A DNA stretch of 64,000 bases. It comes from a virus. Numbering within the stretch: the first letter of the stretch is position 1; the number at the start of each line of letters is the position of its first letter. The translations under genes and the position numbers were made by a program. Positions 27,042-60,731 of this stretch are shown here, one piece after another. The stretch lies in the IMG/VR virus record IMGVR_UViG_3300033145_001746, positions 34,857 through 98,856 of that record, one strand, 5' to 3'. The notes beneath the pieces are model-generated. The model had not been told where the DNA came from and searched no databases. It saw nothing but the letters and a program-made list of their open reading frames with translations.

Positions 27042-27983
27042 CTATTTTCCCCATTTGTAAATTATATTATATCCATCTCTTTCTAGGTCTTCAATTCTTG
27101 ATAAAGTGTTATTATATAATTCTCCAAAAGATTTTTTATTTATAGGATTTATATCTTTTGGATCAAACATTTTTGGGTTGCCGTGCCAAAAATCTCCGAA
27201 ATATTCGTATATAGTATTACTTTCTGGATCATAGGCGTCCACTATATATCTATGATTATTACACTTTATCATAATTTCTCTATTTTCATATGGAATGCTC
27301 AGCTTATCTAACCATCTAGAACCAGAAATAGAAACAGGAGATTTCGCACATTTCGGACATCCATGTTTTTCGCGCGAACTAATAATAGCAGACCACTCAT
27401 ATTTACAGTTTTTACACAACCACCAAACTTTTTTGTGACTTTTCGAGGTAAAATTATCTGGCCCCAATTCATTTTTATTATAATTCCATTCTGTGGCTAT
27501 ATGTGGCAACAGCGCTGCTAGTGAATTAATTCTAGTCGCCACCTTGCCATTACATGCTGGGCAACCACTTCCGCTGTATCTGTGGATTATTCTAGTTTTC
27601 CACTTATAACTACACTTATTACATACCCACCAAACCTTTTTATGGCTACCACACATTATTTCTTTTGGGCTTTCACTATTACGTTTATAGTCCCATTCAC
27701 TGATAAGTTGTGGGTTTTTAAAAGCTAAACAGTTATTATCATTAACTATTTTGCCGGCACACGAAGGGCAACCATTGCCATTAGCCCTGTTTAACACTTT
27801 TGCTTGCCATTCGTATTTACAGTTTTTACACAACCACCAGACTGATCTGCCACTTTTTGCGAACGTGTTAGATGGCTTATATTTTTTATTCTTGTTTGGG
27901 TGCCACTCTTTTGTTAGTTCTGGATAAACTACTTCTAGACACCTATTTTTATTAGGAAATCTCATAGATAATTTACCCTCCAT
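27042..27983 (-). CDS. Putative homing endonuclease: DUF4379-like Zn-ribbon repeats + Vsr/PD-(D/E)XK-like domain (family B)
   Basis: Three EW..KN...S.KKVWW.C..C..EW...GCP.C repeats, then VDAYD...IYEYFGDFWHGNP. Confidence 0.75.
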   Translation of the reverse strand: MEGKLSMRFPNKNRCLEVVYPELTKEWHPNKNKKYKPSNTFAKSGRSVWWLCKNCKYEWQAKVLNRANGNGCPSCAGKIVNDNNCLAFKNPQLISEWDYKRNSESPKEIMCGSHKKVWWVCNKCSYKWKTRIIHRYSGSGCPACNGKVATRINSLAALLPHIATEWNYNKNELGPDNFTSKSHKKVWWLCKNCKYEWSAIISSREKHGCPKCAKSPVSISGSRWLDKLSIPYENREIMIKCNNHRYIVDAYDPESNTIYEYFGDFWHGNPKMFDPKDINPINKKSFGELYNNTLSRIEDLERDGYNIIYKWGK

Positions 27984-30900
27984 AAACCTTTTCTAATTTT
28001 CTAAGCATTAAGGTCTTAACTCCATTAAAATCGCTTACTTGGCAAGTTGCTCTCAATGGCCTGCCGATTCCAATTACTTTTTTGGCCATTTTGTATTGAT
28101 CAGGCCACACAGTAAGTTCTGTTTCTGCCCCAGCAGTATCTTCAACCAAATATTTCATCATCATTTGACCAATATATTTACCGGTTTTTATCTTAAATTC
28201 TCTCAAGAAAGCCTTAGCGATTACCTCTACAACCACCTGCTGTCTATCTGGAAGCATTCTGAGTCTAGATATTGCCGTAACATTATATCCTGTGAAGAAT
28301 CCTGGAAACATATCATTTATAGATCCAGAGACAAGCTCTCCCAATACTTCTTGTTCATGTCTCAACATTTCCTGTTTCGACCATTCTTGTCCTGGTATAC
28401 TGGCTGGGAAATCTTCAAGAGCCATTTCCTCAGACTGATACCCATCTTTTTTAAGGCTCTTTTTCAAAAAGACATTCATCTTGTCTCTTACTTTTTTACC
28501 CTCATCATGGACACCCTTGCGAGAAAGATGAAAGGAATCAAAGCAGCCGGCCTTGGCCAGAACCTCTAGCTTCGTTTTATTAACGATTCTAGCATTAACT
28601 CTAAACAAAAAGTCTTTAAATGATGAGAATGGCTGATTTTCTATCAACTGCTCAAGAGCTTTAACTCCCATGCCTTTAACGGCAGCTAGGCCCATTACAA
28701 TAGTTTGCTCATCTAAGACTTCATAGCCAGCGCTACTTTTATTGATGTCTGGTGGAACAATCTTAATTCCCAAACGCCTACATTCCGCCTTGGCCATATT
28801 TATCTCATCTTCTCTATTGAGACCACCCTTAGAAGTTTTGACCTTCAAATAGGCTGCTAAGAAGGCTGCAGGGTAATAACACTTAAGATATGCTGTTATA
28901 TACCCATTAATCGAATAGAACACCGCATGAGAGTTGGCAGACACCACTCCACCATCTAAAATATAATTGTGGTTTTTATCATCAATTTCCACATAATAAG
29001 TATCGTGTAAGCCCAAATTTTCAACAGTTTGTATAGTAGTATAATTTTCTTCAGCCTGTTTTCTATACAAAGTGGTTCTAGGATGCCAATCTTGCTCTCC
29101 GCTAAAAAACCGCTCTAATCTAATACGCTTGCGAGGTAAAAACATCATAGGTTTTTCATAAAAATATTCATATATCTTTTTAACATCATTTTTTGCTCTA
29201 AACCAAAGAGAATAAGAATTGCCACTCTTTAATACGCCTACATCAAATAATCCATGAATATTGCTATGTAAGTGATCTTTAATGATTTTTAGCATATTAT
29301 AAGGACCCCTGAACCCCAAATTAACTCTAGGTCCCTTATAGTTGTGTACACACACACTTCCATCTCCATCAAAATATCCCAACAAAAAGTGTTTAAAAAG
29401 ATGGTCAGGTATGTTGTGTAAATTAATAGGTTCAGTATTTTTATTTCTAGGTATCCCTAGTTTTTGTAAATTATGGGCCAACTCCATAGAGTTAACTGTC
29501 GCAATCATAGTTCTGGAATTATCTCTATATCTGCTACGCAATTGCCAATTTTCAATACCCAAAAATTCATATAATTTTACCAAATGTTTGAAATCATGGG
29601 TAGATATTTCAACGCCAAGTTTTGTTTTAGATACAGAACCATCGGCAGCTATGAAACCAAACCAGTAGGCGGCAACTTCGTTATCAATTTTATCAAACAT
29701 AAATTTCGGTTTTGTATAAGAATTATAACTTTTTTGAACAGTTTTATATAAAGATCCATAGCCGTTTTTATTTTTAATCCAATCTACGTTATTAACTGGA
29801 ACCTTTTTAATCGGCAATGCTTTGCTAACTATCTCTGATAACTCTTTATATCCAAAAGGAGTTAAAAATTTATGATTAGGGGTAACATTAACGATTCCCC
29901 CATCTTCAAATACTATCTTCCATACCTCCATTTTACGATCCGTTTTACCTATTTCTTTTATTTTCGTGACAATATTTTTTTCAGTATCTTTGTTTAAAGA
30001 TAAAACCTCGTCCCCTTTTTTAAGCTGCCTTAACGACTTCCAACCAGACTCTGTTAGTAAAAAGTTCAATGATTTCAGGCACTTATTGAATCCATATCCT
30101 GAAAATTTCTCTACCACTTTATCCCACACTTCTTTAGAAGCTTCGTAGTCAGTGCCATGTTTCTTCATCATTCCCTCGATGAAGTCAACTTCTAATTGTA
30201 GAGCTAGTTTTGGATCTTTACCTTTTAGTTTCGTAAGTTTACGCAGTCCGTCTGCTTTGTTGAGGTCCCATCCTGCTACATCTTTGGCAACATCCATAAG
30301 TTGCTCTTCCATAATACATAAACCATATGTATGTGCTACACTCCTCTTCAAACTAGGATGTAGATACTCCACTTTTTTAACGCCAAATCTACGATCGATA
30401 TATTCTTGTCTTTCATGTTTAGATGACGGCCTACCAAGGGCATTTATGGCAGCAATATCCAAGATATTATTAGGACGAATTTTTTTACAAAGTGACACCA
30501 TCATACTAGACTTTCCTAGTTGGAACACACATTTTGTATGACCCTGTTGAATCATCTTATATGTTTCTTTATCATCAAGAGGAATATTCTCCATATGTTT
30601 AGGAGCATTTTTAATTCCTAATCTACGGACATTTTTCAAAGCCTCATCGATAATATCTAAGGTAGAAATAGCTAAAAAGTCCATTTTAACCAAGCCGTTA
30701 GCTTCACAACGGTTTTTTTCATATTGTACAGCTATTGTACCATTTTTATCAATGCGTAATGGCGCAAACTCAACAATGGGGACATCAGATACTACCATTC
30801 CTGCGGCGTGGGTAGAATACTCTTTTGGCATTCCAATGATTCTAGTAGCGTGTTCTATAAGCTCTGGTGCCAACTCCGCAAATTCTCGCAATTTAGGCGA

Positions 30901-33801
30901 CGCTTCAAGAGACTTCACAATAGATCTTTCATTTTCAGGGATAAGATTCTTAATAGTTTCTGCCACTCTAACCGAATTCTTGTATCTTTCATCATCTGTA
31001 TTGCCCTTAATTAAATTGGGCAAAACGCTTCGCATAGATCTAATAAGATCTGGGATGACAGTCTTAGGTGTATATGTATTGATGTTCGATACTTGGGCAC
31101 AATGAGCATGTCCATATTTGTTTCTAACATATTCTTGAACAGCATCTCTACCCACGGAAGTGAAATCCGTATCAATATCTGGTAAATCTGTTTTATATGC
31201 GTTTTGAAACCTCTCGAATAAAAGGTTGTATTCAATTGGGTCTACGCCATGAATACCTAATAAATATGCGACCATGCAGCCCCCTACACTATTATGTGCC
31301 GCAAAATTTTGAGTAATATAAGAGTGGTCTTCATTTACTTTAATATCATAAACTTTATCGTGCCCTGCAACTTCAGTTATTTGCTTAACTTTAGTAAAAT
31401 ATCCATTATCTTGTGTGAACCTCGCTGTTTTGTTGGTTTCTAGTCCAGTAAAATGCAGTGCATAGGATTTTTGATGATTTACTATTTTGCCATTATATAA
31501 ACTAGTCTTGGGTTGAGTTATGACAACAGACGAAGGAATTTTCAGATATAAGAGTGCTTCTTTGATCTCTAATACCAATGCTAAACTAACTGTTCTGATA
31601 ATTTCTACACCTTGTTTAGTAGTATGTCCATCAGCATGTTTATAGCCCAGCATAAGGGCTAGTAAATTTTCTTTGCTCAGATTTCTAAAATTACACAAGT
31701 GTTTCGTAAACGAACTGTTTTGATAATTTTTAAATATACTTTTAAACAAGTTAACCAATATTTTATCAAATATTTGGATTTGGACAGCATTTTCTTTTTT
31801 ATTGTAGACCTCACTTTTAAAGCCTAGATTTGAAAAGTATGATGTTATCCTTTTAATGCCATAAATATCTTTTTTATGTAAAGAAAAACCTATATAGTAA
31901 GAATTTCCATGTTCTGAAATAAAACCGTCTCCAATCCATCTCCCTAAAACATAAAACCAATCTTTATCTTGAAGAATAAATCTTTCATATGTGCGTTTTT
32001 CTACATTTTTTCGGTTTTTCCAATCGTCAAAGGAAACTTCTCCTAAATAAGTAACTATTTTTTCAATAGAGTGCGGCGACGCTTTAGTTTTCCCATTTTT
32101 TATGTTGCTAACAGTTTTAATTTGAAGCCCAGTATGTTGCGAAACCTGTATAATAGAATACTTATTTGATAATTTTATATTTTTAGAAATATTAGTATTA
32201 GAAACTTTATATCTTATTCTACTATTTTGTGTAAAATCGGCTAAATCGATAGGAGCCGTTGGCCTTATTTCTCTGGTTGGCCAAGGCATAAAAAGCAAGT
32301 TTCCTAATTTTAACTCATCTGCGCGAATCCATTCGGGATCCTCATTAACATTGCGTGTACCAAATAACTCATGATTTTTAGTAAAAACAAGGTCATTGAA
32401 CTGAAAATCTGTTTTAACACGCAGCAAATGTTCTTCTGGCAAACAATTATATTCAAATGTGTTGGAAACACTAGATATTCTTCCAGTATGTGTGTAGACC
32501 TCGTCACCAATATTAATTTTATCTATGTTTACAAACCCGTTTGAAGTTAAAATCTTTGTTTCTTTAATCGTACAGCCACGACCCACGCCAACCAAAATGC
32601 CATGTTCTTTAGCCCATTTAATAAAATCTGCCGTAACCAACATATAAGAAGAGAAATTGTTTCCTTCAAGGATCTTCAATTCCTTTTTAACTCGTTCCCA
32701 CCTCTCCTTTTTTTTGTCTGGCTCCATATGGCTAAACTTTTCCTTAAAGCCTTGTATCACTTTATAGCGCATGTACTTCATATCTAAAGACATTTTCTCT
32801 GGCATCTTTACAGTTTTACACCATTTTATAAATACATCTGCATCTGGTTCTTCGCGAGGATTAAATATTGGTAAGTGATTACCAATAGTCTCCATGTAAT
32901 CAGGTGGATCACATTGGTTGGAAATGTCGACAGTACTACGTAATGCTAGGTCAGCAACGGTAGACCCGTGATGTTTTTCTATAAACCTATATACTTCATC
33001 CCCGCCTTTAAAATAGAACTCATCTGATCTATCTATTCTATAGCCATATCTTTCAGGATCATCAACACGCTTTTTAGCATTTATAGCCATAAGAATATCA
33101 TGAGTCTTGTCCCATTTACTTGTCATGTAGTGAGTATCTACTCCAACTACGATTGAAATGCCTAGTTTCTGACCAAGATTTATGAGCTGTTTGTTGAGAA
33201 AAACTTGATCTATATAATCATCTTTCAACGCATGTGGTTGGATTTCCATATAAAATCTATCACCAAAGATTTTCTGTAATCTCTGAGCAATTTCAGTGGC
33301 TCTATCATAATCTCCATTATAGATTGGCTCAGCTAATATGCCACCACTACATGCGGTAGTAACAATTAAACCTTCTGAATATTTCTCTAATACATCCCAA
33401 CTTATTCTTGGGAAAACTCTTCCCATGCTGACCACATGATGTTGAAACCCTATATAATTTAATTTAAGCAGGTTTTTATAGCCCACTTCGTTTTGGGCCA
33501 AGACAATCATATGCTTTCTTTTTTCGGTTTTCTTTCTCTTTATTTTAGCATTTGGATCTATTGGCAAGTAATCATACGAATGTACAAAATATATTTCGCA
33601 CCCTGGAATAAATTTCACTCCAGTTCTTTTATATGCCTTAAAAGCATCATAATGGCAGGCAAGTGTGCCGTGATCTGTAATAGCCAAAGATTTTTGACCC
33701 ATTTCTTTAGCGGCATTAAACAAATCGTCTACATCTGCCAAGGAATCGAGCATCGACCCAAGATTTGAGTGACAATGAATATTAACAAATTCTCTAAACA
33801 T
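27973..33801 (-). CDS. dnaE: DNA polymerase III alpha subunit with two inteins
   Basis: PHP domain (HCHS, TDHG, GCE), GRG|S, PDIDTDF, STHAAG, KMDFL, GFNK|SHA, C-terminal OB fold. Confidence 0.97.
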   Translation of the reverse strand: MFREFVNIHCHSNLGSMLDSLADVDDLFNAAKEMGQKSLAITDHGTLACHYDAFKAYKRTGVKFIPGCEIYFVHSYDYLPIDPNAKIKRKKTEKRKHMIVLAQNEVGYKNLLKLNYIGFQHHVVSMGRVFPRISWDVLEKYSEGLIVTTACSGGILAEPIYNGDYDRATEIAQRLQKIFGDRFYMEIQPHALKDDYIDQVFLNKQLINLGQKLGISIVVGVDTHYMTSKWDKTHDILMAINAKKRVDDPERYGYRIDRSDEFYFKGGDEVYRFIEKHHGSTVADLALRSTVDISNQCDPPDYMETIGNHLPIFNPREEPDADVFIKWCKTVKMPEKMSLDMKYMRYKVIQGFKEKFSHMEPDKKKERWERVKKELKILEGNNFSSYMLVTADFIKWAKEHGILVGVGRGCTIKETKILTSNGFVNIDKINIGDEVYTHTGRISSVSNTFEYNCLPEEHLLRVKTDFQFNDLVFTKNHELFGTRNVNEDPEWIRADELKLGNLLFMPWPTREIRPTAPIDLADFTQNSRIRYKVSNTNISKNIKLSNKYSIIQVSQHTGLQIKTVSNIKNGKTKASPHSIEKIVTYLGEVSFDDWKNRKNVEKRTYERFILQDKDWFYVLGRWIGDGFISEHGNSYYIGFSLHKKDIYGIKRITSYFSNLGFKSEVYNKKENAVQIQIFDKILVNLFKSIFKNYQNSSFTKHLCNFRNLSKENLLALMLGYKHADGHTTKQGVEIIRTVSLALVLEIKEALLYLKIPSSVVITQPKTSLYNGKIVNHQKSYALHFTGLETNKTARFTQDNGYFTKVKQITEVAGHDKVYDIKVNEDHSYITQNFAAHNSVGGCMVAYLLGIHGVDPIEYNLLFERFQNAYKTDLPDIDTDFTSVGRDAVQEYVRNKYGHAHCAQVSNINTYTPKTVIPDLIRSMRSVLPNLIKGNTDDERYKNSVRVAETIKNLIPENERSIVKSLEASPKLREFAELAPELIEHATRIIGMPKEYSTHAAGMVVSDVPIVEFAPLRIDKNGTIAVQYEKNRCEANGLVKMDFLAISTLDIIDEALKNVRRLGIKNAPKHMENIPLDDKETYKMIQQGHTKCVFQLGKSSMMVSLCKKIRPNNILDIAAINALGRPSSKHERQEYIDRRFGVKKVEYLHPSLKRSVAHTYGLCIMEEQLMDVAKDVAGWDLNKADGLRKLTKLKGKDPKLALQLEVDFIEGMMKKHGTDYEASKEVWDKVVEKFSGYGFNKCLKSLNFLLTESGWKSLRQLKKGDEVLSLNKDTEKNIVTKIKEIGKTDRKMEVWKIVFEDGGIVNVTPNHKFLTPFGYKELSEIVSKALPIKKVPVNNVDWIKNKNGYGSLYKTVQKSYNSYTKPKFMFDKIDNEVAAYWFGFIAADGSVSKTKLGVEISTHDFKHLVKLYEFLGIENWQLRSRYRDNSRTMIATVNSMELAHNLQKLGIPRNKNTEPINLHNIPDHLFKHFLLGYFDGDGSVCVHNYKGPRVNLGFRGPYNMLKIIKDHLHSNIHGLFDVGVLKSGNSYSLWFRAKNDVKKIYEYFYEKPMMFLPRKRIRLERFFSGEQDWHPRTTLYRKQAEENYTTIQTVENLGLHDTYYVEIDDKNHNYILDGGVVSANSHAVFYSINGYITAYLKCYYPAAFLAAYLKVKTSKGGLNREDEINMAKAECRRLGIKIVPPDINKSSAGYEVLDEQTIVMGLAAVKGMGVKALEQLIENQPFSSFKDFLFRVNARIVNKTKLEVLAKAGCFDSFHLSRKGVHDEGKKVRDKMNVFLKKSLKKDGYQSEEMALEDFPASIPGQEWSKQEMLRHEQEVLGELVSGSINDMFPGFFTGYNVTAISRLRMLPDRQQVVVEVIAKAFLREFKIKTGKYIGQMMMKYLVEDTAGAETELTVWPDQYKMAKKVIGIGRPLRATCQVSDFNGVKTLMLRKLEKVYGG
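28933..30081 (-). mobile_element. DnaE intein 2 (383 aa, LAGLIDADG-type) at FNK|SHA
   Basis: Starts CLKSLNFLLT, contains TPNHKF, WFGFIAADG and LLGYFDGDG; ends GVVSAN followed by Ser (penultimate Ala instead of His). Confidence 0.92.
31291..32574 (-). mobile_element. DnaE intein 1 (428 aa, LAGLIDADG-type) at GRG|SVGG
   Basis: Starts CTIKETKILT, ends YITQNFAAHN followed by Ser; internal LGRWIGDG and GYKHADG. Confidence 0.92.
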
Positions 33802-52372: not shown

Positions 52373-53659
52373 CTATAATGCTTCTGTACTTAAAACTCCA
52401 GTTGGAGCTACAACTAACTTCCACATAGAACCATCCGAAGCAGTTAATTTTACATAACTATACCCATCTTCAGTAAGTCTGACACCTATTCCATATTCAT
52501 CCATATAATGTAGATCATTATATCCATCTATTTGTTTGACGTGTAACATACCTTTCAAAGGAATTGGGGTCGGATCAGAAATACTGTTGAGCGTTAAATA
52601 ACCGTCAAGTTCTAATGCCTCAGCACCAGAGGCATCTATAACTACAGCACCGGTATCTGCTGTAATAGTTCTTCCAGAGCCCGCGCCGGCCTCATCATAA
52701 GCTTGATCTAATGACACAGTATGTGGATTCACAAGATCGGCAAGATGATCTTCCACATCATTTCCAAGGTCTCCAATATAACCGTCAACCCCAGCAAGAT
52801 GAGCTGTAAGTTCATCAACATTAGTAACTTCACCTGGAGAAGTTGTGGGAACATAGTGAGTAGGAGTAAAATCTATATCAAGTATATCACCGTCTATCTC
52901 ATCTGTTCCACCTCTTATATGAGATGCGTCATGATCTACATTAGCATATCCATCTAACTCAGATCTATCAAATAATGTGGCGTCCGTGATTGCCACATTA
53001 AGTTCGGCAAGAGTGCCTGTACCAAGGTTATCTATATCGGTAGCGTGTGGATTCACAAGATCAGCCAAATGATCTTCTACATCGTTTCCAAGATCTCCAA
53101 TATATCCATCAACACCTGCTAAATGTGCTGTTAATTCATCTACACCAGTAACTTCACCTGGGGAAGTTGTGGGAACATAGTTAGTAGGAGTAAAATCTAT
53201 ATCCAAAACATCGCCGTCTATCTCATCACTGCCTCCGCTAATATGAGATGGAGCATGAGCTGCGGGAGCAACAACATTGTTATCAATAGCCAGAAAAGCT
53301 TCATGTAAAGAACCAGACCATCCTGTGGTATTTCCACTCTCATCAAAGTTATCTTCTTCACCGGTAGCAGGAATGCGCATACTTAAATTAGCAGTTCGAA
53401 CTGCTCCAATTGCTATATCAGTAATGGCACCATTTACTGTAAGCCTTATTCTATATGATCCTACAATATCTGGGGTAAATGAAGAAGTCTGAGCAGTGGG
53501 AGTCGCTAAAGTTGACGCAGAACCTGGTGGCACAGATAAGAGTTCCCAAAGTCTAGAAATTGCGCCCGTTCCAGCATCATTTAAATTAACTAAAACGCCA
53601 GTGCTCAAGTCACTTCGACTACCAGATGCACCATTGATTTGAATTACGGCTGTGGCCAT
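52373..53659 (-). CDS. Putative virion fibre/decoration protein with a PKD-like N-terminal domain and a 71-aa duplication
   Basis: WELLSVPPGS...FTPDIVGSYRIRLTVN; two HxxSHIxGGxDEIDGD...HLADLVNPH repeats; recurrent DGY; preceded by the promoter motif. Confidence 0.6.
   Translation of the reverse strand: MATAVIQINGASGSRSDLSTGVLVNLNDAGTGAISRLWELLSVPPGSASTLATPTAQTSSFTPDIVGSYRIRLTVNGAITDIAIGAVRTANLSMRIPATGEEDNFDESGNTTGWSGSLHEAFLAIDNNVVAPAAHAPSHISGGSDEIDGDVLDIDFTPTNYVPTTSPGEVTGVDELTAHLAGVDGYIGDLGNDVEDHLADLVNPHATDIDNLGTGTLAELNVAITDATLFDRSELDGYANVDHDASHIRGGTDEIDGDILDIDFTPTHYVPTTSPGEVTNVDELTAHLAGVDGYIGDLGNDVEDHLADLVNPHTVSLDQAYDEAGAGSGRTITADTGAVVIDASGAEALELDGYLTLNSISDPTPIPLKGMLHVKQIDGYNDLHYMDEYGIGVRLTEDGYSYVKLTASDGSMWKLVVAPTGVLSTEAL
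52721..53257 (-). repeat. Two ~213-nt coding repeats (52721-52933 and 53045-53257)
   Basis: Nearly identical peptides, 324 nt apart, with synonymous divergence. Confidence 0.85.
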
Positions 53660-53780: not shown

Positions 53781-54499
53781 TTAGGATAAATTATATTTAA
53801 TGGTCATTTCTTTTTTAAAACGATTCATTTCCTCTTCTTCAAATTTGGCACTTTTCTTTAAATTATCACTACTTAGGAGCCACTGATGGTTTTCTGGCGC
53901 GCAGGCTATGCGAAATTCTTTTGAATCGGATAAACAAAAGGCACTTAGCGGGAAAATGTGATCAATATGGTATTCAGATAATTTCCCTGGACATTTGCCG
54001 AGAAAGTCAACAATTCCATTAAAATCGATGTATAGGTCCTTATAAATCTGGATGTTTTATAGCAAGACTCGCAGAGAGGGTTGTTTTTTCCTGTTTTAAT
54101 TATCTTTACTTTATTACACTTGTTACATTTGTGTCTATTTTCTTTTTTGTAGCATTCAGGACAAATAGGGCTATTTCCTCTTCTTTTAGCAACTGGCGAT
54201 AACTTCCCACAATTAACACATTTCTCCAAGCACATTTCATATCTGCAAGAACCACAAAACTTTTTATCTCCATCACGTTTTTTGATAGGTTTTATTTTTT
54301 TACAGATAAAACAAACATCTTTTTTCCTATTACATTCTTGACATATTGCTTGTCCATCTATTCTAGCATTTACTGTTCTTATATTATTACATTTTATACA
54401 TTTTTCTTTGTTTTTCTTAGAATAGCAATTAAAACACAAAATACCATTTTTACTAGCCGCTACTCTTTTGTTTTTGAAACAAACAGAACATATCGCCAT
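53781..54499 (-). pseudogene. Frameshifted family A HNH endonuclease (copy 4)
   Basis: Cys repeats in frame 0. The -1 frame from ~54050 reads YKDLYIDFNGIVDFLGKCPG..EYHIDHIFPLSAF...APENHQWL...DNLKK to TAA at 53781. The linker helix of the paralogues is missing. Confidence 0.8.
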
Positions 54500-54509
54500 A
54501 CGTACTATA

Positions 54510-57500
54510 TCATATATCTAATCTCCCAGTTTTATTAAAATTTTGGTAAATAAATTCTTTTCTGGCCTTTATATTAGAGCCCATTAATACATTAAAAATC
54601 TTGTCAGCCTCTACATAATTATTGATTGTGACTTTTAACAATGTTCTAAGTTCTGGATTCATAGTAGTTTCCCATAATTGAAGACCAGAAAGTTCTCCCA
54701 ATCCCTTAAATCTCTGCATGTTAATAGATTTATTCTCTAAATTATACTTTTTTGAAAATATTTTTAACTCTCTATCACCTTTTAAGTAATAAGACTTTCC
54801 TCGCATATTAACTTTATACAGGGGCGGACAAGCAATATATATATTCCCGTTCACAATAAGTTGTGGCATTTGCCTGAAGAAAAACGTTAACAATAACGTG
54901 CGGATGTGGGACCCATCAACATCTGAATCCATACATAGTATAATTTTACCATATCTGAGCGCAGCCAAATTTAATGATTTTCCAATACCTATTCCAATTG
55001 CTGTGATAAGATTTGTAAGTTCCTCATTATCCATCAAGGCTTTAAATTCTTTTTTCTCAATATTTAGCACCTTACCACGAAGTGGCAAAATAGCTTGGAA
55101 TCTCCTATCTCTACCCTGCTTAGCTGAATTATGTACAAATATTCCAGATGCCAGCGCAAAATTGTGAGTATCTGGAACTTCTAAATCATAAACATCTGTT
55201 TTTCCTTTTAATTTAACGATTTTTGTTATTTTATGATTATGACATTTTAAGGCATCCATCATATCGCTTTCATTTCCATCAAAATATCGTTCCAAAAATG
55301 TTCTTTTACTTAATACTGACTTATCTTTATGTTCAATTCTTTTCTTATCGAACAAATCTATTGAATTATGTTCGTCATAGACTTTTCTCATAAAATCAAT
55401 AGTTTTTCTATAATACGTTGCTTTTAAGGCTTTCTTCCTTTTCCTGCGAAATTCGTCAGTCCACTGTTCCTTTGTTTTTTCACGTCTCCAATTTAACAAT
55501 TCGTCGTTAGCCCATTGTTCTTTAGCTTTTTGTCTATGATGTTCGACCGCTTCTGGATGCTCTTTAAAATATTTCAGTTTAGATTCGCTCATTTCTTTTC
55601 TATGTTCATCGTTTTGCCAATATTTTTCTGCAGCTTCTCTTAATTGTTGGTTATTTTGTTTTCTATATTCTTCATTACTGTAATAAAACTCTAACCATTT
55701 TTCTCTCATATATTTTTTATAATCTTCGTCCTCCCACTGTTTTTTAGCTCTTTCAGATAGCATTTTAGACATTTCTGGAGTTGACATTATGTCACTCATT
55801 TTTTTTCTAAACTCGGGGGTTTGCCTCAAAATCCTTAACTTTTCAAGTACCTCTGGAGTACGCAAATTTAAATCTGCCATTTTACGATGTAGTTCTAAAT
55901 GATCGTCTTTAAGCATTCTAATAATGTTAGATGGATTATTATTTAATTTATTAAAATCTAAATGGTGTCGATGTTTTCCAAAAACTTCACCATACTTTTT
56001 AATATCTATATTATATTTATCTGCCAATACGTGTGTAAAAACCCACCTATTTTCGATATTTTCCCAAACCATTTCATATCCTTTAATTGTAATACGATTC
56101 TCGCATTTGGATAATTTTTTATATAATGGGAATATACTATCGCCTTCAGATAGGTATTGTATTTCTTTATATGATCCATCTATCAACATAAACAAGTGGT
56201 CGGGGGTACAAATAATTTTATGTCCATTATCAAGTGTAACCTCTATAACTTCTTGATTTGTATCAGTTTTTCTTGGATTTATTATTGGTTTAATACATAT
56301 TTTTCTTTTACTATTAATAGAATAACAGTAATTTTGAACTCCCTGTTTATGTTCTACTATAAGTTCTTTAAAAGACAACTCTCGTCCATCAGTTAGTAAA
56401 ACTTTGGTATCTCCAGAAAAGCAGCCCCCGGCTGACGAGCCTTCAACTATGAACAACTCACACAAATCTGGATCCTTTTCTTGGCAGTCTGCGAGTTTAC
56501 CTGGCAAAACACCTGCCCCACTCGACATAACAGATTTCCTGACTGCCTCACGTGCCTTCTTAGCTGCTTCACGAGCCTTCCAGGCGTTCACACACCTTGA
56601 GACAATCTTCTTCGCTATAGACGGGTTCTGCTCCAAAAAAGATAGTAGGCAACTAGATACCACATTTTCTACGGGTTGTCTTGCATCTTCAGAAACAAGC
56701 TTATGCTTTACCTGTGAATCAAATTTGGGGTCAGGATGCCTAATACTCACAACTGCAGCCAAGCCCTCTCTAATATCTTCCCCAGAAAGAGAAATCTTCA
56801 ATGATTTCGGCAAGTCAGACGCCGCAATAAAATTATTTATTGTTCTGGTCAAACCAGCTTTAAACCCAGACATATGGGAGCCGCCCTCTGGATTAGGAAT
56901 ATTATTGGTATAATACTTACAAATCTCTTTATCTACAGTATTGCCCATCCATTGTAGAGCAACATCTACTGTTACCTCTCCATCATTTTTATTTATAACA
57001 GACTTCGCAAATGTTATTGGCGGAGCCAGTAAGTCTCCTTTCGAAAGGTGCCGGATAAATCCAGACATGTCGCTCTCGCCACCAAAGATTTCTTTAGTTT
57101 TACGGATTTCATCAACAAATTCAATTGTTAAACCCCTACAAAGAAACGATAGTTCCATTAATTTGTTTTTTATTATCATTGGATCGAACTTTGTAATATT
57201 TTTAAATATGGTTAAATCTGGCCCAAACCTTATAAAGGTTCCTGTCGCCTTCCCTCTAGCCTTCTTTTCGGTAAGATCTTCAACTTTTTTGCCTTTGGCG
57301 AAAGCCATTGAATATTCTTTCCCATCTCTCCTTACAACCACTTTAAGGCGAGATGAAAGAGCATTTACTACGGAGGCACCCAATCCGTGTAGGCCGCCAC
57401 TAACCTTATAGTTAGTTTTATCAAACTTGCCCCCAGCATGTAGAGAAGTTAAAATTACTTCTAGAGCAGACATTTTTTCCTTTACCATTCTATATATCGG

Positions 57501-57731
57501 AATTCCACGACCGGTGTCGCCGACAGATGCTGAGCCATCTTCATGTAAAGTCACAGTTATTTTATCACAATAACCAGCTAAGTATTCATCGACGCTATTA
57601 TCTAATATTTCCATAACCATATGGTGTAAGGCTTCGTTATTATGGAGGTTTCCTATAAACATGGAAGGAATTTTGCGAACAGCGGCTAAACCTTCTAATA
57701 CGGTAATTTTATAATCATCTTGCTTCATCAT
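54510..57731 (-). CDS. gyrB: DNA gyrase/type IIA topoisomerase subunit B with intein (641-aa extein)
   Basis: EILDNSVDE, DTGRGIP, LHAGGKF, GGLHGLGASVVNALS, LPGKLADC, VEGSSAGG|SAKQGR, PLRGK, DSDVDG, RFKGLGE. Confidence 0.95.
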   Translation of the reverse strand: MMKQDDYKITVLEGLAAVRKIPSMFIGNLHNNEALHHMVMEILDNSVDEYLAGYCDKITVTLHEDGSASVGDTGRGIPIYRMVKEKMSALEVILTSLHAGGKFDKTNYKVSGGLHGLGASVVNALSSRLKVVVRRDGKEYSMAFAKGKKVEDLTEKKARGKATGTFIRFGPDLTIFKNITKFDPMIIKNKLMELSFLCRGLTIEFVDEIRKTKEIFGGESDMSGFIRHLSKGDLLAPPITFAKSVINKNDGEVTVDVALQWMGNTVDKEICKYYTNNIPNPEGGSHMSGFKAGLTRTINNFIAASDLPKSLKISLSGEDIREGLAAVVSIRHPDPKFDSQVKHKLVSEDARQPVENVVSSCLLSFLEQNPSIAKKIVSRCVNAWKAREAAKKAREAVRKSVMSSGAGVLPGKLADCQEKDPDLCELFIVEGSSAGGCFSGDTKVLLTDGRELSFKELIVEHKQGVQNYCYSINSKRKICIKPIINPRKTDTNQEVIEVTLDNGHKIICTPDHLFMLIDGSYKEIQYLSEGDSIFPLYKKLSKCENRITIKGYEMVWENIENRWVFTHVLADKYNIDIKKYGEVFGKHRHHLDFNKLNNNPSNIIRMLKDDHLELHRKMADLNLRTPEVLEKLRILRQTPEFRKKMSDIMSTPEMSKMLSERAKKQWEDEDYKKYMREKWLEFYYSNEEYRKQNNQQLREAAEKYWQNDEHRKEMSESKLKYFKEHPEAVEHHRQKAKEQWANDELLNWRREKTKEQWTDEFRRKRKKALKATYYRKTIDFMRKVYDEHNSIDLFDKKRIEHKDKSVLSKRTFLERYFDGNESDMMDALKCHNHKITKIVKLKGKTDVYDLEVPDTHNFALASGIFVHNSAKQGRDRRFQAILPLRGKVLNIEKKEFKALMDNEELTNLITAIGIGIGKSLNLAALRYGKIILCMDSDVDGSHIRTLLLTFFFRQMPQLIVNGNIYIACPPLYKVNMRGKSYYLKGDRELKIFSKKYNLENKSINMQRFKGLGELSGLQLWETTMNPELRTLLKVTINNYVEADKIFNVLMGSNIKARKEFIYQNFNKTGRLDI
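55128..56423 (-). mobile_element. GyrB intein (432 aa) with HNH endonuclease, Ssp GyrB-like
   Basis: CFSGDTKVLLTDGRELSF...CTPDHLF...HHLDFNKLNNNPSNI...VYDLEVPDTHNFALASGIFVHN|S. Confidence 0.93.
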
Positions 57732-58612
57732 TTACCCCATTTATATATAACGTTATATCCATCTTGTTCTAGTATGTTAATTCTTTCCATGGTATCTTCA
57801 TATAGATCACCAAATCTTTTTTTATTTTTTGGATTTATATCATCTGGATCATATTTATCGGGATTTCCATGCCAAAAACTTCCTAAATATTCATATATGG
57901 TATTGGTAGTAGGATCATAGCCGTCAACGACAAAGGTTCTATCCTTGTTTTTAATAATGAAACCATATTCCAAAGATTCTATATTTAATGTTTGTAGCCA
58001 TATTTTCTCGACTCTAGAAGAATTAGAATAAGCACACCTAGGACAACCATTTCCTTGGATATGAGAATTTGGTTCTTGGACAAAAACTCCGTGTTTTGGA
58101 CAAACGATTTTGATTTTTTTATGAGCATTGCGATATTCTACAAGGGAATAATCATATTTATCGCCATGTTTTATAATAGCCCTATTAACAAAGTCTCCTT
58201 TAGTTGATCTAAACAACATTGATAATTTGTCCGGCACACAATAACGACAACCTTTTCCGTTTAAATGGTGTACTGGTGTTTGCCGAAAAACTCCGTGTTT
58301 TGGACAAATAATTTCTATCTTGGTTTTGCTATTTTTATATGTAACTTTAGAATAATCGTATTTATATCCGTGTACTTCAGTAGCCCTCATAATAAATGAC
58401 TTTTTTGTAGACTTATCACGACCTCCACATTTTATACATCCCTTGCCACATAAGTGAGAATCTGGAACTTGTATAAATATTCCATGAATAGGGCAAATGA
58501 TTTCTATCTTGGTTTTGCTATTTTTATATGTAACTTTAGAATAATCGTATTTGTATCTATGTAAAATGTGTGCACGATTAATAAATATCTCAGTTGTTAA
58601 CTTTTTAGGCAT
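57728..58612 (-). CDS. Putative homing endonuclease: DUF723-like repeats + Vsr-like domain (family B catalytic domain)
   Basis: Three YDYS.V.Y.N...KI.I.CP.HG.F.Q.P..H..G.GC..C repeats, then VDGYD...IYEYLGSFWHGNP. Confidence 0.75.
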   Translation of the reverse strand: MPKKLTTEIFINRAHILHRYKYDYSKVTYKNSKTKIEIICPIHGIFIQVPDSHLCGKGCIKCGGRDKSTKKSFIMRATEVHGYKYDYSKVTYKNSKTKIEIICPKHGVFRQTPVHHLNGKGCRYCVPDKLSMLFRSTKGDFVNRAIIKHGDKYDYSLVEYRNAHKKIKIVCPKHGVFVQEPNSHIQGNGCPRCAYSNSSRVEKIWLQTLNIESLEYGFIIKNKDRTFVVDGYDPTTNTIYEYLGSFWHGNPDKYDPDDINPKNKKRFGDLYEDTMERINILEQDGYNVIYKWGK

Positions 58613-58777
58613 TCATTGGTCACCCGAATTATCCTCATCCGTTGGCGGAAGGTCTTCATAGATACAGTAGTCGCCATTAAGCCAATGATACAAGTCCACA
58701 TCTTTACAAAGACGAGAGCAAAACGGGAAGTGCTTAGAGTTATCATCCCTGTCGGCCTTACAAATTGGGCACTTCAT
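58613..58777 (-). CDS. yacG: YacG-like DNA gyrase inhibitor (54 aa; not in the ORF track)
   Basis: MKCPICKADRDDNSKHFPFCSRLCKDVDLYHWLNGDYCIYEDLPPTDEDNSGDQ*. It has CPxC-x13-C-x3-C spacing with PFCSxxC and DLxxW, then an acidic tail. TAATG-coupled to the upstream gene with GAGGAG upstream; its stop abuts the next ATG. Confidence 0.88.
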   Translation of the reverse strand: MKCPICKADRDDNSKHFPFCSRLCKDVDLYHWLNGDYCIYEDLPPTDEDNSGDQ

Positions 58778-59169
58778 TACTGCTCCTCATTAAACTTTTT
58801 CAACATATTTTCAACTTGCGACTGTTTAAGAAAAACAATTTCTCCGCCATTTGGTCCTGTCTCGAAAGAAGCGATAAAATATTTTTCTAACATATGCTTA
58901 ATAACACAATATAGGTCGTAATCATATCCGTGCCATCGACCGCCACCTGGCAGAGTCTCAAGCACCTCTTTTCTCATTTTATCGATGGAGATCTCTTTAT
59001 TATTTGATGTTAAATATTTTTTAGAAATATGTTTCGGGCCTAATTCGCCTATTTTAATAAGGGCTGTAATACTATCTTTAGCAGCCTTATCAACATCAAG
59101 ATTTCGTGGTATCACAGCAACAAACGAACTACTTGAACTGTTACTTACAAATCCATTTCTTATTTTCAT
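58777..59169 (-). CDS. MKIRxGFVSNSSSSS-leader protein 1
   Basis: N-terminus MKIRNGFVSNSSSSSF. Confidence 0.75.
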   Translation of the reverse strand: MKIRNGFVSNSSSSSFVAVIPRNLDVDKAAKDSITALIKIGELGPKHISKKYLTSNNKEISIDKMRKEVLETLPGGGRWHGYDYDLYCVIKHMLEKYFIASFETGPNGGEIVFLKQSQVENMLKKFNEEQ

Positions 59170-59177
59170 TTTTATTC

Positions 59178-59375
59178 CTATCCAAATATTAGTTTAATTA
59201 ATTTTTTTGCCGTTTCGTTTCTAGTGTTATAATCATCGAATGGAGAGCCATGTTTGTCATATAACAACATTGCTATGTTACAAATATACACCCATTTCAA
59301 ATCAGGATCCGCGTCAAATTTATCCTTCATAATTTTTCGCGCATTCGAGAACACATTACTATTGAGAATTTTCAT
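59178..59375 (-). CDS. Small hypothetical protein
   Basis: Start MKILNS overlapping the rnhB stop, with GGAGGGAG upstream. Confidence 0.6.
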   Translation of the reverse strand: MKILNSNVFSNARKIMKDKFDADPDLKWVYICNIAMLLYDKHGSPFDDYNTRNETAKKLIKLIFG

Positions 59376-60118
59376 TCTCCCTCCTTGAAACCAAATGGAA
59401 TCTGTTTCCACTTATTCTTTTTCGCTTCCTTCCAAAGAACATAGTCAGATTTCGCTGACGCCGCTGATCGTATGGCTTCTGAGGCGAAATAGTCCTGTGC
59501 TGTCTTACCATTCTTTACCATCATTAAGTATTCTTTATGACGGGACAGGCAGTATTTGAAATACTCAAACTTGTTCCTGTGAAGATCAGTGGGTCCATGA
59601 AGTATAACTCCATTACGATGCTTGGGGGAATAATATCCAGCATTATTCTCCCAGTCATAATGGCTATACTTATCCTGCTTGGTTAAGTCGGCCATCATAG
59701 TGTCTCGTTTAACTTTAGCTAGAATTGAAGCCGCTCCTACTTGCCAGAACTTAGCATCAGCTTTAATGACAGCTTCTTGCGGTATGTCTAGGTCTGGGAT
59801 CTCGAATTTACCATCTACTATAACTTTCGAAACTTGAACACCATTAGCAACAAGTTCTTCTACCGCACGCTTCATCGCCTCATACTTGCTCCAATGAATA
59901 TTGATTTCCTCTATTCTCTCTACAGATGATGTTGCGAAAGCATGAGGCAATATTCTTGAGAGTGTAGGGAAAAGAGAATTTCTTTTCTTTTTGCTTAGCT
60001 GCTTGGAATCATTAACACCTTCTATTTTGTTCTGACCCTTTTCCACGGCAACCGCACATACTAGGACTGGTCCTGCTATGGACGCACAACCTACTTCGTC
60101 AACATATACTTTACTCAT
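59372..60118 (-). CDS. rnhB: Ribonuclease HII
   Basis: VDEVG...AGPV, DSKQLS, IVDG, KADAK...AASILAKVKRD, NAGY. Confidence 0.93.
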   Translation of the reverse strand: MSKVYVDEVGCASIAGPVLVCAVAVEKGQNKIEGVNDSKQLSKKKRNSLFPTLSRILPHAFATSSVERIEEINIHWSKYEAMKRAVEELVANGVQVSKVIVDGKFEIPDLDIPQEAVIKADAKFWQVGAASILAKVKRDTMMADLTKQDKYSHYDWENNAGYYSPKHRNGVILHGPTDLHRNKFEYFKYCLSRHKEYLMMVKNGKTAQDYFASEAIRSAASAKSDYVLWKEAKKNKWKQIPFGFKEGE

Positions 60119-60731
60119 CTAAAAATTCTCCTATCTTCTCTATAATTTTATCTTTACTAGACGCATCTCCGAGCATATTGTCTGCCCACGGTCTTCCGGC
60201 ATGTAAAACATCCCAATCTGGCTTCGCTTGATAAAATCGAGTTCTCCCTACATGATGGTTTCCAAACCCATCTATAACACAGTTCCAAAGAGGCTTATGT
60301 TGTCTGATAAGTGCTGCCTCCACTGAGGAAACCAAATCACCATCTAGAATCATGTACTGATATTTAAAATCATTGGGATCTAAATTTTGTGCTTGTGCTA
60401 TACTATTAGCATGTTCCTTAATTCGTTTCCATAAGTTGTAAGATTCTTTGGTTGACTTCCTTCCCTTTCGCCACCCGCTGGGCACAGCTTTGCCCACATA
60501 CATAGGTTTCGTAGAAAAATCTATGTCATGCTTTTTCTCTAAGTTTTTATACAATTCCAATTCGCCTATGTAGTAGAGAACATAGACTCCACAGCCTGAA
60601 AACTTGGATCTAATTGGTAAAGAATAGGTGGGGCTTTTCTCCAAAAAGCTGATAGCTTTTCCTACAACTTTTTGGAATTTGTTAGAAGGAAATCTGTGAG
60701 AATCTCTTTTAAAAAAAGAGAATAGACTCAT
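60111..60731 (-). CDS. Eco29kI-family GIY-YIG restriction-type endonuclease
   Basis: GVYVLYY...PMYVGKAVP.G.RKG, RI.EH, EAALI...PLWN..IDGFGNH..G, WD.LH.GR.WA. Confidence 0.85.
   Translation of the reverse strand: MSLFSFFKRDSHRFPSNKFQKVVGKAISFLEKSPTYSLPIRSKFSGCGVYVLYYIGELELYKNLEKKHDIDFSTKPMYVGKAVPSGWRKGRKSTKESYNLWKRIKEHANSIAQAQNLDPNDFKYQYMILDGDLVSSVEAALIRQHKPLWNCVIDGFGNHHVGRTRFYQAKPDWDVLHAGRPWADNMLGDASSKDKIIEKIGEFLDE

Follow-up and report, generated by a model that had tools for sequence, protein, structure and literature searches.

A conserved yacG-gyrB module in a gyrA-less clade of huge uncultured phages and a possible gate on a hybrid phage-host gyrase

Why would a virus carry a YacG-like gyrase inhibitor in the same gene run as the gene for a gyrase B subunit? 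The locus that raises this question lies in a 64,000-nt stretch of viral DNA (hereafter the window; IMG/VR record IMGVR_UViG_3300033145_001746). A sequence-only reading of it had noticed a 54-aa open reading frame (ORF) with YacG-like motifs upstream of gyrB, and had proposed that the phage either shuts down host gyrase while supplying a resistant GyrB, and thus a gyrase of its own, or tunes its own topoisomerase. We find that a clade of huge uncultured phages without gyrA has a conserved gene module that opens with yacG and runs to gyrB. The YacG identity and the linkage to gyrB are supported on closer analysis, but the resistant GyrB and the substitution of an entire gyrase are not.

The ORF at 58613..58777 (minus strand) carries the motifs first seen in it, with predicted zinc ligands C3, C6, C20 and C24 (CPIC, 13 residues, CSRLC) followed by FPFCS, DLYHW and an acidic tail. 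On sequence grounds it can be confirmed as a genuine member of the YacG family and not a chance ORF. Pfam YacG (PF03884) matches it over profile positions 1-51 of 52 with 49.1 bits (E 4.7e-13), against a curated gathering cut-off of 25.5 bits, and in a six-frame search of the genome the profile scored 47.6 bits at yacG. The NCBIfam equivalog cut-offs for YacG are not reached (NF002362, 45.2 bits vs 79; NF001638, 28.1 vs 83), thus the phage protein is a divergent member that does not earn the name by equivalog rules. The ORF is kept in related viral records. An alignment of 77 family sequences shows no variation at C6, P18, D28 and W32, and the Cys at C3, C20 and C24 is retained in at least 90% of the relatives; in one relative (L003) the third zinc-ligand position is Asp. 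W32, which follows D28-L29, is the equivalent of E. coli Trp40, and I39, a position occupied by I, V, F or L in other clade members, that of E. coli Ile47. The tail (PPTDEDNSGDQ) has no Trp; a tail Trp is kept in the relatives G003 and G005. An AF2 model (pLDDT 87) predicts a two-stranded zinc knuckle and then a single alpha helix at residues 22-33. When this model was compared with the PDB by Foldseek, E. coli YacG took the first five places, with 1LV3 (probability 0.33) behind four 4TMA chains (probability 0.97-1.00, TM ~0.6). The E-values are weak, as expected at 54 residues.

The genes around yacG, all on the minus strand, are tightly packed. Upstream, in a conserved run, lies a 130-aa ORF (58777..59169) with an N-terminal MKIRNGFVSNSSSSSF leader, a leader family also found upstream of yacG in G003, G005 and G013. 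This ORF ends in TAATG, with one base common to its stop and the start of yacG. The TGA stop of yacG directly abuts the ATG of a gene for a free-standing homing-type endonuclease (294 aa, 57728..58612), the end of which overlaps the start of gyrB by 4 nt. Thus yacG does belong to the gene run of gyrB, with the endonuclease placed between them. The endonuclease contains repeated DUF723/DUF4379 zinc-finger modules (Pfam) and matches phrog_681 and phrog_559, both "endonuclease" (E ~1e-45); of its homologues, that of L003 precedes yacG, that of G003 lies between mazG and gyrB, and that of G004 precedes gyrB. Two conserved anchors bound the module. Upstream is an RNase HII gene (59372..60118; Pfam RNase_HII, 122 bits), which also precedes yacG in L003, L004, G003, G004, G005, G006 and G013. 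Downstream is the gene for a protein that starts with MATAV-IQING (52373..53659), and homologous N-termini are found directly after gyrB in L004, G002, G003, G004, G005 and G006. The MATAV protein matched no family and nothing in PHROG; its N-terminal homologues open long repeat proteins in relatives that are tail-fibre-like by appearance only. The phage's own replication genes also form a large set, with a UvsX-like recombinase and SbcCD beside a DNA polymerase.

The gyrB gene (54510-57731, minus strand) encodes a 1073-aa precursor that includes a 432-aa intein. Four Pfam domains and NCBIfam NF004189 (766 bits, cut-off 740) match it; TIGR01059 stays under its cut-off (761 vs 882), with a match interrupted by the intein. 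The N-extein (residues 1-436; 56424..57731, minus strand) comprises the GHKL ATPase, the transducer and the first TOPRIM strand (Pfam HATPase_c and DNA_gyraseB) and ends in EGSSAGG, and the C-extein (residues 869-1073; 54510..55127, minus strand) comprises the remainder of TOPRIM together with the C-terminal tail domain (Pfam Toprim and DNA_gyraseB_C). The intein between them (residues 437-868; 55128..56423, minus strand) has Cys1, a C-terminal His-Asn and a +1 Ser, is matched by Intein_splicing (PF14890, 72 bits), TIGR01445 and TIGR01443, and resembles DnaE inteins of known structure (PDB); in its middle, an HNH-like motif (HHLDFNKLNNNPSN...H) was recognized by eye only. Its site is the TOPRIM motif EGxSAGG|S, with predicted splice junctions EGSSAGG|CFSGD and FVHN|SAKQG, and an insert also interrupts the GyrBs of G005 and G004 at this position. 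Most of the deviation in the TOPRIM motifs to which the sequence-only reading had drawn attention is therefore the intein interrupting them. What remains of it is D426S and the change of IIIMTDADVDG to IILCMDSDVDG, with E424 and D498/D500/D502 intact. The equivalents of E42, N46, D73, K337, E424 and D498/D500/D502 are invariant in nine clade GyrBs, as are the C-terminal motifs in the phage GyrBs, and the equivalent of Y109 is conserved in the phage GyrB. Judged from these residues, the spliced protein would keep every catalytic position.

In 11 viral records of one huge-phage clade (the window, L003, G001-G007, G013 and G018) gyrB is preceded by yacG on the same strand at a distance of 0-5.5 kb, with GyrB identities that reach as low as ~47%; the conservation of the pair in related huge phages is thus borne out. 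A 13-nt overlap joins the two genes in G005, and elsewhere they are parted by mobile DNA (homing endonuclease, restriction-modification cassette or MazG-like gene). Because the whole stretch from RNase HII to the MATAV protein is syntenic in the clade, the 11 records are not independent events. The viral gyrB loci retrieved with 10-kb flanks include 10 with yacG but without gyrA, and another 12 in which gyrA directly follows gyrB and yacG is missing. Viral records lacking gyrB can encode YacG as well, among them G011 and G016, both rated complete; a phage YacG can thus be of use where host gyrase is the only target it could have. No yacG was seen in G017, an orphan-gyrB record rated 63% complete. 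A characterised phage YacG together with a phage gyrase gene was not found in the literature searched, in agreement with the sequence-only reading, which named none; the conserved position of yacG upstream of gyrB in a gyrA-less clade of huge phages is new.

The absence of gyrA bears directly on what this phage could do with its GyrB. Neither Pfam PF00521 nor E. coli GyrA found a match in G000-G007 or G018, and GyrB was found once per record searched for it. In G002, a 441.9-kb record that is rated 100% complete and whose ends overlap by 126 nt, a tblastn search across all 441,904 bases gave a best E-value of 1.5 for GyrA vs 0 for GyrB. Most records being fragments, the absence is firm for a single complete genome and for another three records that are rated 66-84% complete. 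A phage of this clade thus cannot substitute its own gyrase, and at most one subunit would be replaced. For the same reason YacG is more likely to be a controller of a mixed phage-host enzyme than a simple means of disarming the host.

The proposed resistance of the phage GyrB can be judged at the YacG docking pocket, which was defined on GyrB in an E. coli co-crystal (PMC4083091) and the whole of which falls within the C-extein. In E. coli YacG, mutagenesis has shown that Trp40 and Ile47 matter, Trp40 being essential for GyrB binding and inhibition; Ile47 contacts GyrB H505, L509, F777 and L780, and Trp59 in the C-terminal tail docks between the GyrA winged-helix domains (PMC4083091). Since removal of residues 52-65 barely changes binding and inhibition (PMC4083091), the tail Trp is not essential to the action of the family. 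In the window GyrB the pocket differs from that of E. coli by M461 to L and Y515 to F, with H505, L509, F513, R516, Q517, F777 and L780 kept. All pocket residues are conserved or conservatively replaced in 9/9 aligned phage GyrBs, with the Trp pocket (L/M461, L509, F513, R516 and F777) and H505, Q517 and L780 intact in every one. F513, R516, Q517 and F777 are the GyrB-type states, the YacG-insensitive E. coli ParE having L, K, H and M; topo IV is insensitive to YacG (PMC10886550). Relative to E. coli GyrB the phage proteins show Y515F, K447R and a missing D481 contact residue, and D426 is S in the window and N in two relatives. F515 and the loss of the D481 position are also found in GyrB homologues of YacG-bearing planctomycetes, and hence they are not signatures of resistance. 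The phage pocket states fall inside the range of GyrBs from YacG-bearing bacteria, and no position was identified at which the nine aligned phage GyrBs part from GyrBs of the YacG-sensitive type. The phage GyrB thus appears to carry no sign of YacG resistance. Since the pocket residues are common to many bacterial GyrBs, the intact pocket indicates no evident resistance and is not proof of the intended target.

We give about even chances to what we consider the best explanation, that the phage GyrB pairs with host GyrA and that the phage YacG reversibly gates the resulting enzyme. Once the intein has been spliced out, GyrB would be a catalytically complete subunit, able to work only by assembling with the host GyrA dimer into a hybrid gyrase. 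By homology with the E. coli protein, the co-expressed YacG would insert its helix and W32 into the hydrophobic TOPRIM pocket of the phage GyrB and, once docked, would hold the hybrid enzyme off DNA, as in E. coli. The direction of its action would then be that of a reversible brake or safety catch on a phage-controlled enzyme, not that of a weapon against the host alone. Phage YacG may bind host GyrB too. A purely anti-host inhibitor would probably be blunted, because a GyrB with an intact pocket, expressed from the same gene run, would be expected to soak it up. Of the two possibilities raised by the sequence-only reading, the tuning of the phage's own topoisomerase fits the data better than the takeover of the host's. 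An extra gyrB^R subunit is able to work with the housekeeping GyrA. In novobiocin producers gyrB^R sits alongside a sensitive housekeeping gyrB^S, a precedent for an unpaired extra gyrB (PMC6804068).

The same intact pocket weighs against a selective subunit swap, the earlier takeover proposal recast for a phage without gyrA, in which YacG would block gyrase built on host GyrB while a YacG-insensitive phage GyrB takes over host GyrA and brings supercoiling under phage control. The product of an orphan gyrB inevitably competes with host GyrB for GyrA, the YacG of gyrB-less viral records must target host gyrase, and the phage peptides Igy and Gip do inhibit host gyrase (PMC10886550). The departures of the phage GyrBs at positions 515, 447, 481 and 426 could be read as insensitivity, but the Trp pocket and its neighbors are GyrB-type and not ParE-type, two of the departures recur in the planctomycete homologues and no position was seen to set the phage proteins apart, and we regard such a swap as unlikely. 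With the gated hybrid enzyme as the preferred reading, a further question is its purpose. YacG might park the hybrid or host gyrase off DNA under toxin attack, as a guard against gyrase poisons, although we think this quite improbable, and the same holds for the attackers envisaged (CcdB/ParE-type toxins of the host or a competitor, microcins or quinolone-like compounds) and for the benefit of avoiding double-strand breaks in a long infection. Bacterial YacG is described as induced by gyrase-damaging stresses and as guarding cells from gyrase poisons, with gyrase kept off DNA (PMC10886550, in its account of Biswas et al. 2023). The phage's large replication set, and the variation in the clade at GyrB positions linked to drug resistance (D426 = S/N, R136 = H/K), are compatible with a guard. 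However, neither toxin nor defence genes are linked to the yacG-gyrB module, and a guard differs from the gated hybrid in purpose only, with the same molecular action, so that sequence cannot separate the two.

The synteny of the clade also allows for no functional coupling, YacG being a general host-modulating early protein that acts on host gyrase and its adjacency to gyrB being inherited. Synteny extends to the flanks (RNase HII on the upstream side, the MATAV protein on the downstream side), all yacG-gyrB records come from a single GyrB clade, and the space between the two genes is freely invaded by mobile elements. On the other side, the order and strand of the pair are kept across the full range of GyrB identity despite these repeated insertions, the genes overlap in G005, and yacG never accompanies loci of the gyrB-gyrA type in the sample fetched; independence of the two genes is in our view very improbable.

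Compared with known systems, the phage protein belongs to the same family as E. coli YacG (PF03884; 1LV3, 4TMA) by HMM and predicted fold, and shares its four-Cys zinc site, the P-F-C and D-L-x-x-W core, the pocket-inserting Trp and the hydrophobic residue seven positions on. It differs in a linker between the Cys pairs that is two residues shorter and without Trp18, and in a short, acidic tail without Trp59. Among cellular proteins, YacGs of alphaproteobacteria and planctomycetes come closest to it (~50-55% identity). E. coli yacG lies in coaE-zapD-yacG, far from gyrB, whereas the phage gene is linked to gyrB. YacG-like genes have been annotated in the P. aeruginosa prophage vB_PaeP-D14I (PMC10449497) and in the Stromatodesulfovibrio provirus SNV1 (bioRxiv 10.64898/2026.08.12.739948), with host gyrase as the proposed target. 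As here, these are virus-carried homologues proposed to act against gyrase, at the level of annotation only; the passages of these two sources that concern them mention no adjacent phage gyrB, whereas in the huge phages yacG and an orphan gyrB are parts of one conserved module.

Igy (LUZ24) and Gip (CGP3 prophage) are also small proteins of phages, and they reduce gyrase activity without poison-type damage (PMC10886550). Their families are unrelated to YacG, Gip binding GyrA and Igy being a proposed DNA mimic, and their phages have no gyrase subunit. The gyrB^R of aminocoumarin-producing Streptomyces is likewise a second gyrB without its own gyrA beside the housekeeping gyrB (PMC6804068), but it is a cellular self-resistance gene in an antibiotic biosynthesis cluster and has no YacG partner. 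The phage GyrBs show no consistent coumarin-resistance signature at R136: the window retains the Arg, L003 has H and G003 has K. Other large phages have genes for type IIA B subunits, among them phage G (GyrA and GyrB), Rak2-like phages and T4 (gp39/gp60/gp52) (PMC12484599, PMC6102473). All of these encode the A subunit too, whereas the present clade has gyrB only.

Read from its sequence, the locus appears to place a true YacG in a new setting, and it predicts a hybrid gyrase composed of phage GyrB and host GyrA. The 54-aa ORF at 58613-58777 on the minus strand carries all the features that the sequence-only reading had listed (CPIC, 13 residues, CSRLC, then FPFCS, DLYHW and an acidic tail), and its assignment to the YacG family holds, with a full-profile match to Pfam PF03884 that scores 49.1 bits (cut-off 25.5). 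By sequence, the PDB entries that match it best are those of E. coli YacG, namely 4TMA (chain I) and 1LV3. An AlphaFold2 model based on 77 family members (pLDDT 87) shows a zinc knuckle and one helix, and the five best PDB matches in a structural search with this model are all E. coli YacG. The NCBIfam equivalog cut-offs are not reached, thus the phage protein is a divergent member. An 80%-identical protein (P0001) is encoded on a 1.6-kb contig. Across 11 phage YacGs, residues C3, C6, P18, F19, C24, D28, L29, W32 (the equivalent of E. coli Trp40) and Y37 are invariant and the Ile47 equivalent is hydrophobic throughout. The tail of the window's YacG has no Trp and two relatives have one; in E. 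coli YacG the tail Trp reaches GyrA, yet the tail is dispensable (PMC4083091). The YacG of the related stretch L003 (7499-7663) has its third zinc-binding Cys replaced by Asp (FPFDKEIC), with the remaining motif including the Trp intact. Another candidate, the high-GC phage HNH endonuclease L002, was rejected as a YacG, since the DLxxW motif is absent even though its zinc ribbon contains FCSRLCK.

Relatives were collected by protein-guided searches, by a degenerate DNA pattern for PFCxxxCxxxDLxxW run over IMG/VR, and by a GyrB-profile scan. The synteny is borne out: in 11 viral records (the window, L003, G001-G007, G013 and G018) yacG precedes gyrB in the same orientation at a distance of 0 to ~5.5 kb, and identity to the window's GyrB is 47-65% among them. 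The spacer varies by phage, being a MazG-like gene, a homing endonuclease or a cytosine-methylase/NgoPII-type restriction cassette, and the G005 pair overlaps by 13 nt. The flanks are conserved too (RNase HII and MKIRNGFVSNSSSSSF-leader proteins on the upstream side, a long repeat protein on the downstream side), which makes the linkage old, yet it counts as one evolutionary event rather than eleven. Among the IMG/VR pattern matches (L012-L046; records G008-G012 and G014-G016), ~29 out of 35 are true YacG ORFs. Many come from viral or proviral records that lack gyrB, and two gyrB-less viral records with YacG are rated complete. Several high-GC matches of alphaproteobacterial type may be host genes at provirus edges. 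In L032 the match forms the end of an open frame of 614 aa.

The genes are packed as tightly as first described. One base is common to the TAA of the preceding ORF and the ATG of yacG, the yacG TGA is directly followed by the ATG of the endonuclease gene (57728-58612, minus strand), and this gene shares 4 nt with the start of gyrB (54510-57731, minus strand). The 294-aa endonuclease is of the free-standing homing type (phrog_681/559; DUF723 plus DUF4379 zinc-finger repeats) and is considered a mobile insert because the position of its homologues relative to yacG and gyrB changes from one relative to another. Members of this family, also found at L003:6405-7502, L050:4950-5675 and L051:4085-5143, combine 2-4 repeats of a ~70-aa zinc-finger module (KYDYSKVxY...CPxHG...) with a C-terminal GYDxxxxxxYEYxGxxWHG domain, and their slot differs phage by phage as for a mobile homing element. 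The 1073-aa gyrB product holds a 432-aa intein (55128-56423, minus strand) after EGSSAGG, with Cys1, a terminal His-Asn and a +1 Ser, in which an HNH-like motif and Lys/Glu-rich helical repeats take the place of a LAGLIDADG domain. Inserts at the same EGxSAGG|S site measure 283 aa in G005 (L052:3310-6129) and 196 aa in G004 (L051:5147-9244), and G004 has a second insert of 535 aa immediately before the DxDxD motif. Related phages have putative inteins at the same gyrB site, one of them with a second. Small, otherwise dissimilar proteins that share the MKIRNGFVSNSSSSSF N-terminal leader are grouped just upstream of yacG in several clade members (window 58777-59169, minus strand, plus ORFs further upstream; three consecutive at L050:6258-7527; L052:2778-3146). 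An Eco29kI-family restriction endonuclease gene (60111-60731, minus strand) overlaps the start of the RNase HII gene, and the cassette between yacG and gyrB in G002 (L049:4585-7720) comprises two C5-cytosine methylases and an NgoPII-like endonuclease. A protein made almost wholly of CxxC pairs (multiple zinc ribbons) adjoins the module, downstream of gyrB in the window (53945-54499, minus strand) and upstream of yacG in L003 (5148-5945); its sole family match, to the Pfam double zinc ribbon (DZR), is weak and below the cut-off.

The parent IMG/VR record, of which the window covers bases 34857-98856, spans 98.9 kb and is 24% complete (CheckV). All genes of the window are on the minus strand, and because they include a terminase large subunit, a 1942-aa DNA polymerase, SbcCD and a UvsX-like recombinase, the window is considered part of a large tailed phage that brings replication genes of its own. 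Matches to endonuclease and ribonucleotide-reductase PHROGs inside the polymerase ORF (27973-33801, minus strand) suggest that this gene also holds at least one intein or inserted domain. Against 50,697 phage records, neither megablast with the locus nor tblastn with YacG gave a match, and the best tblastn match of the phage GyrB in phage records reached only ~52% identity across most of its length; several of the top rows look like bacterial gyrB deposited under phage names. No PHROGs family matches the phage YacG. Judged by these comparisons, no cultured phage resembles the window. GyrB gave no clue to the host: in bacteria whose YacGs are most similar, GyrB identity to the phage protein is just 46-52%, not above that of E. 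coli.

Searches with Pfam PF00521 and E. coli GyrA detected no GyrA in G000-G007 and G018, and PF00204 detected exactly one GyrB per record among those searched. Record G002 comprises 441,904 bases, with a completeness rating of 100%. In a tblastn of the whole of G002 the best GyrA match had E = 1.5 versus E = 0 for GyrB, and an overlooked divergent gyrA was rejected there, as tblastn at E up to 100 and scans for the HPHGD, AAMRYTE and KSARxVG motifs came back empty. At the ends of G002 (L053-L076), the last 126 bases repeat bases 20-145, and nearby sequence recurs inverted in the first 19 bases; the IMG/VR label is "linear". The start looks like an assembly artefact at a closed circle or a terminal redundancy, and the repeat supports a closed assembly, short of proof. 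Among the viral gyrB loci examined with 10-kb flanks, yacG is present and gyrA absent in 10, whereas 12 others have gyrA immediately downstream and lack yacG. Phage G and Rak2-like phages encode both gyrase subunits according to the literature searched (PMC12484599, PMC6102473).

The phage GyrB looks like a working B subunit in need of an A subunit. ATPase residues E42, N46, D73 and K337 (E. coli numbering), the TOPRIM acidic residues and the C-terminal motifs are kept in all nine aligned clade GyrBs. In the E. coli YacG-GyrB co-crystal, Trp40 occupies a pocket of M461, L509, F513, F777 and R516, with further contacts at Y515, Q517, H505, L780 and D481 (PMC4083091). The phage GyrBs have L or M, L, F, F and R at the five pocket positions and F (Y in one), Q, H and L at 515, 517, 505 and 780, and they lack the D481 position. 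E. coli ParE, whose enzyme escapes YacG inhibition (PMC10886550), has V, L, L, M, K, V and H at 461, 509, 513, 777, 516, 515 and 517, and the phage pocket is of the GyrB type throughout. In bacteria with the most similar YacGs, the GyrB homologues vary within the same limits; F515 and absence of the D481 position are found there as well. The suggestion that the phage GyrB resists YacG is thus not upheld: because the pocket is GyrB-type throughout and within the range of YacG-bearing bacteria, the alignment of the nine clade GyrBs, ParE and these bacteria holds no resistance signature. An intact pocket is no proof of its use by YacG. A complex prediction of the window's GyrB (N-extein 380-436, C-extein 869-1073) with YacG and Zn scored 0.07, 0.70 and 0.07, values that count neither for nor against binding. 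As for the reported TOPRIM deviation, most of it is the intein, and a true substitution, D426S, remains. In the alignment of the window, L003, G003 and G005, D426 is replaced by S in the window and by N in G003 and G005, R136 by H in L003 and by K in G003, and K447 by R in all. These are positions known from E. coli drug-resistance mutations, with D426S and D426N within the quinolone-resistance region, outside the Trp pocket.

The most economical reading, to which we would give an even chance, is that the phage GyrB assembles with host GyrA and that co-expressed YacG binds the intact pocket of this GyrB, gating access of the hybrid enzyme to DNA. Novobiocin producers offer a cellular precedent for an extra unpaired gyrB, their gyrB^R (PMC6804068). 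A YacG-competent GyrB expressed alongside would be expected to titrate a purely anti-host inhibitor. Against gating, the YacGs in gyrB-less viral records, including the two rated complete, could have only the host enzyme as a target there. Selective takeover, in which YacG would be aimed at host gyrase while the phage GyrB is insensitive, appears unlikely, as no resistance signature was found. Protection from gyrase poisons by the phage YacG seems rather improbable. That yacG sits beside gyrB by mere inherited synteny is less probable still.

The hybrid enzyme could also be taken further, as a tentative possibility, to a two-gene capture of an essential host enzyme. This clade of megaphages would supply only the gyrase B subunit and YacG, with phage GyrB displacing host GyrB on the host GyrA dimer and YacG acting as the switch that enables the swap, either by silencing host-GyrB complexes or by keeping phage GyrB inert until assembled. 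Supercoiling would then pass to phage control without a whole phage topoisomerase.

If the hybrid enzyme is real, phage YacG would control a phage-host gyrase, which would be a new viral hold on host DNA topology, and the clade would offer natural YacG/GyrB pairs for the study of recognition at the TOPRIM pocket, which is also an antibacterial target site (PMC10886550). The prediction is directly testable with purified proteins. In the literature searched we found no paper on YacG linked to a phage gyrB, as had been supposed, nor on a phage clade with gyrB but without gyrA. To our knowledge, all YacGs characterised so far are chromosomal and regulate the gyrase of their own cell, and few phage proteins touch gyrase, namely Igy and Gip. 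YacG-like genes are known from a Pseudomonas prophage (PMC10449497) and a Desulfovibrio-type provirus (bioRxiv 10.64898/2026.08.12.739948), where they stand at the level of annotation only.
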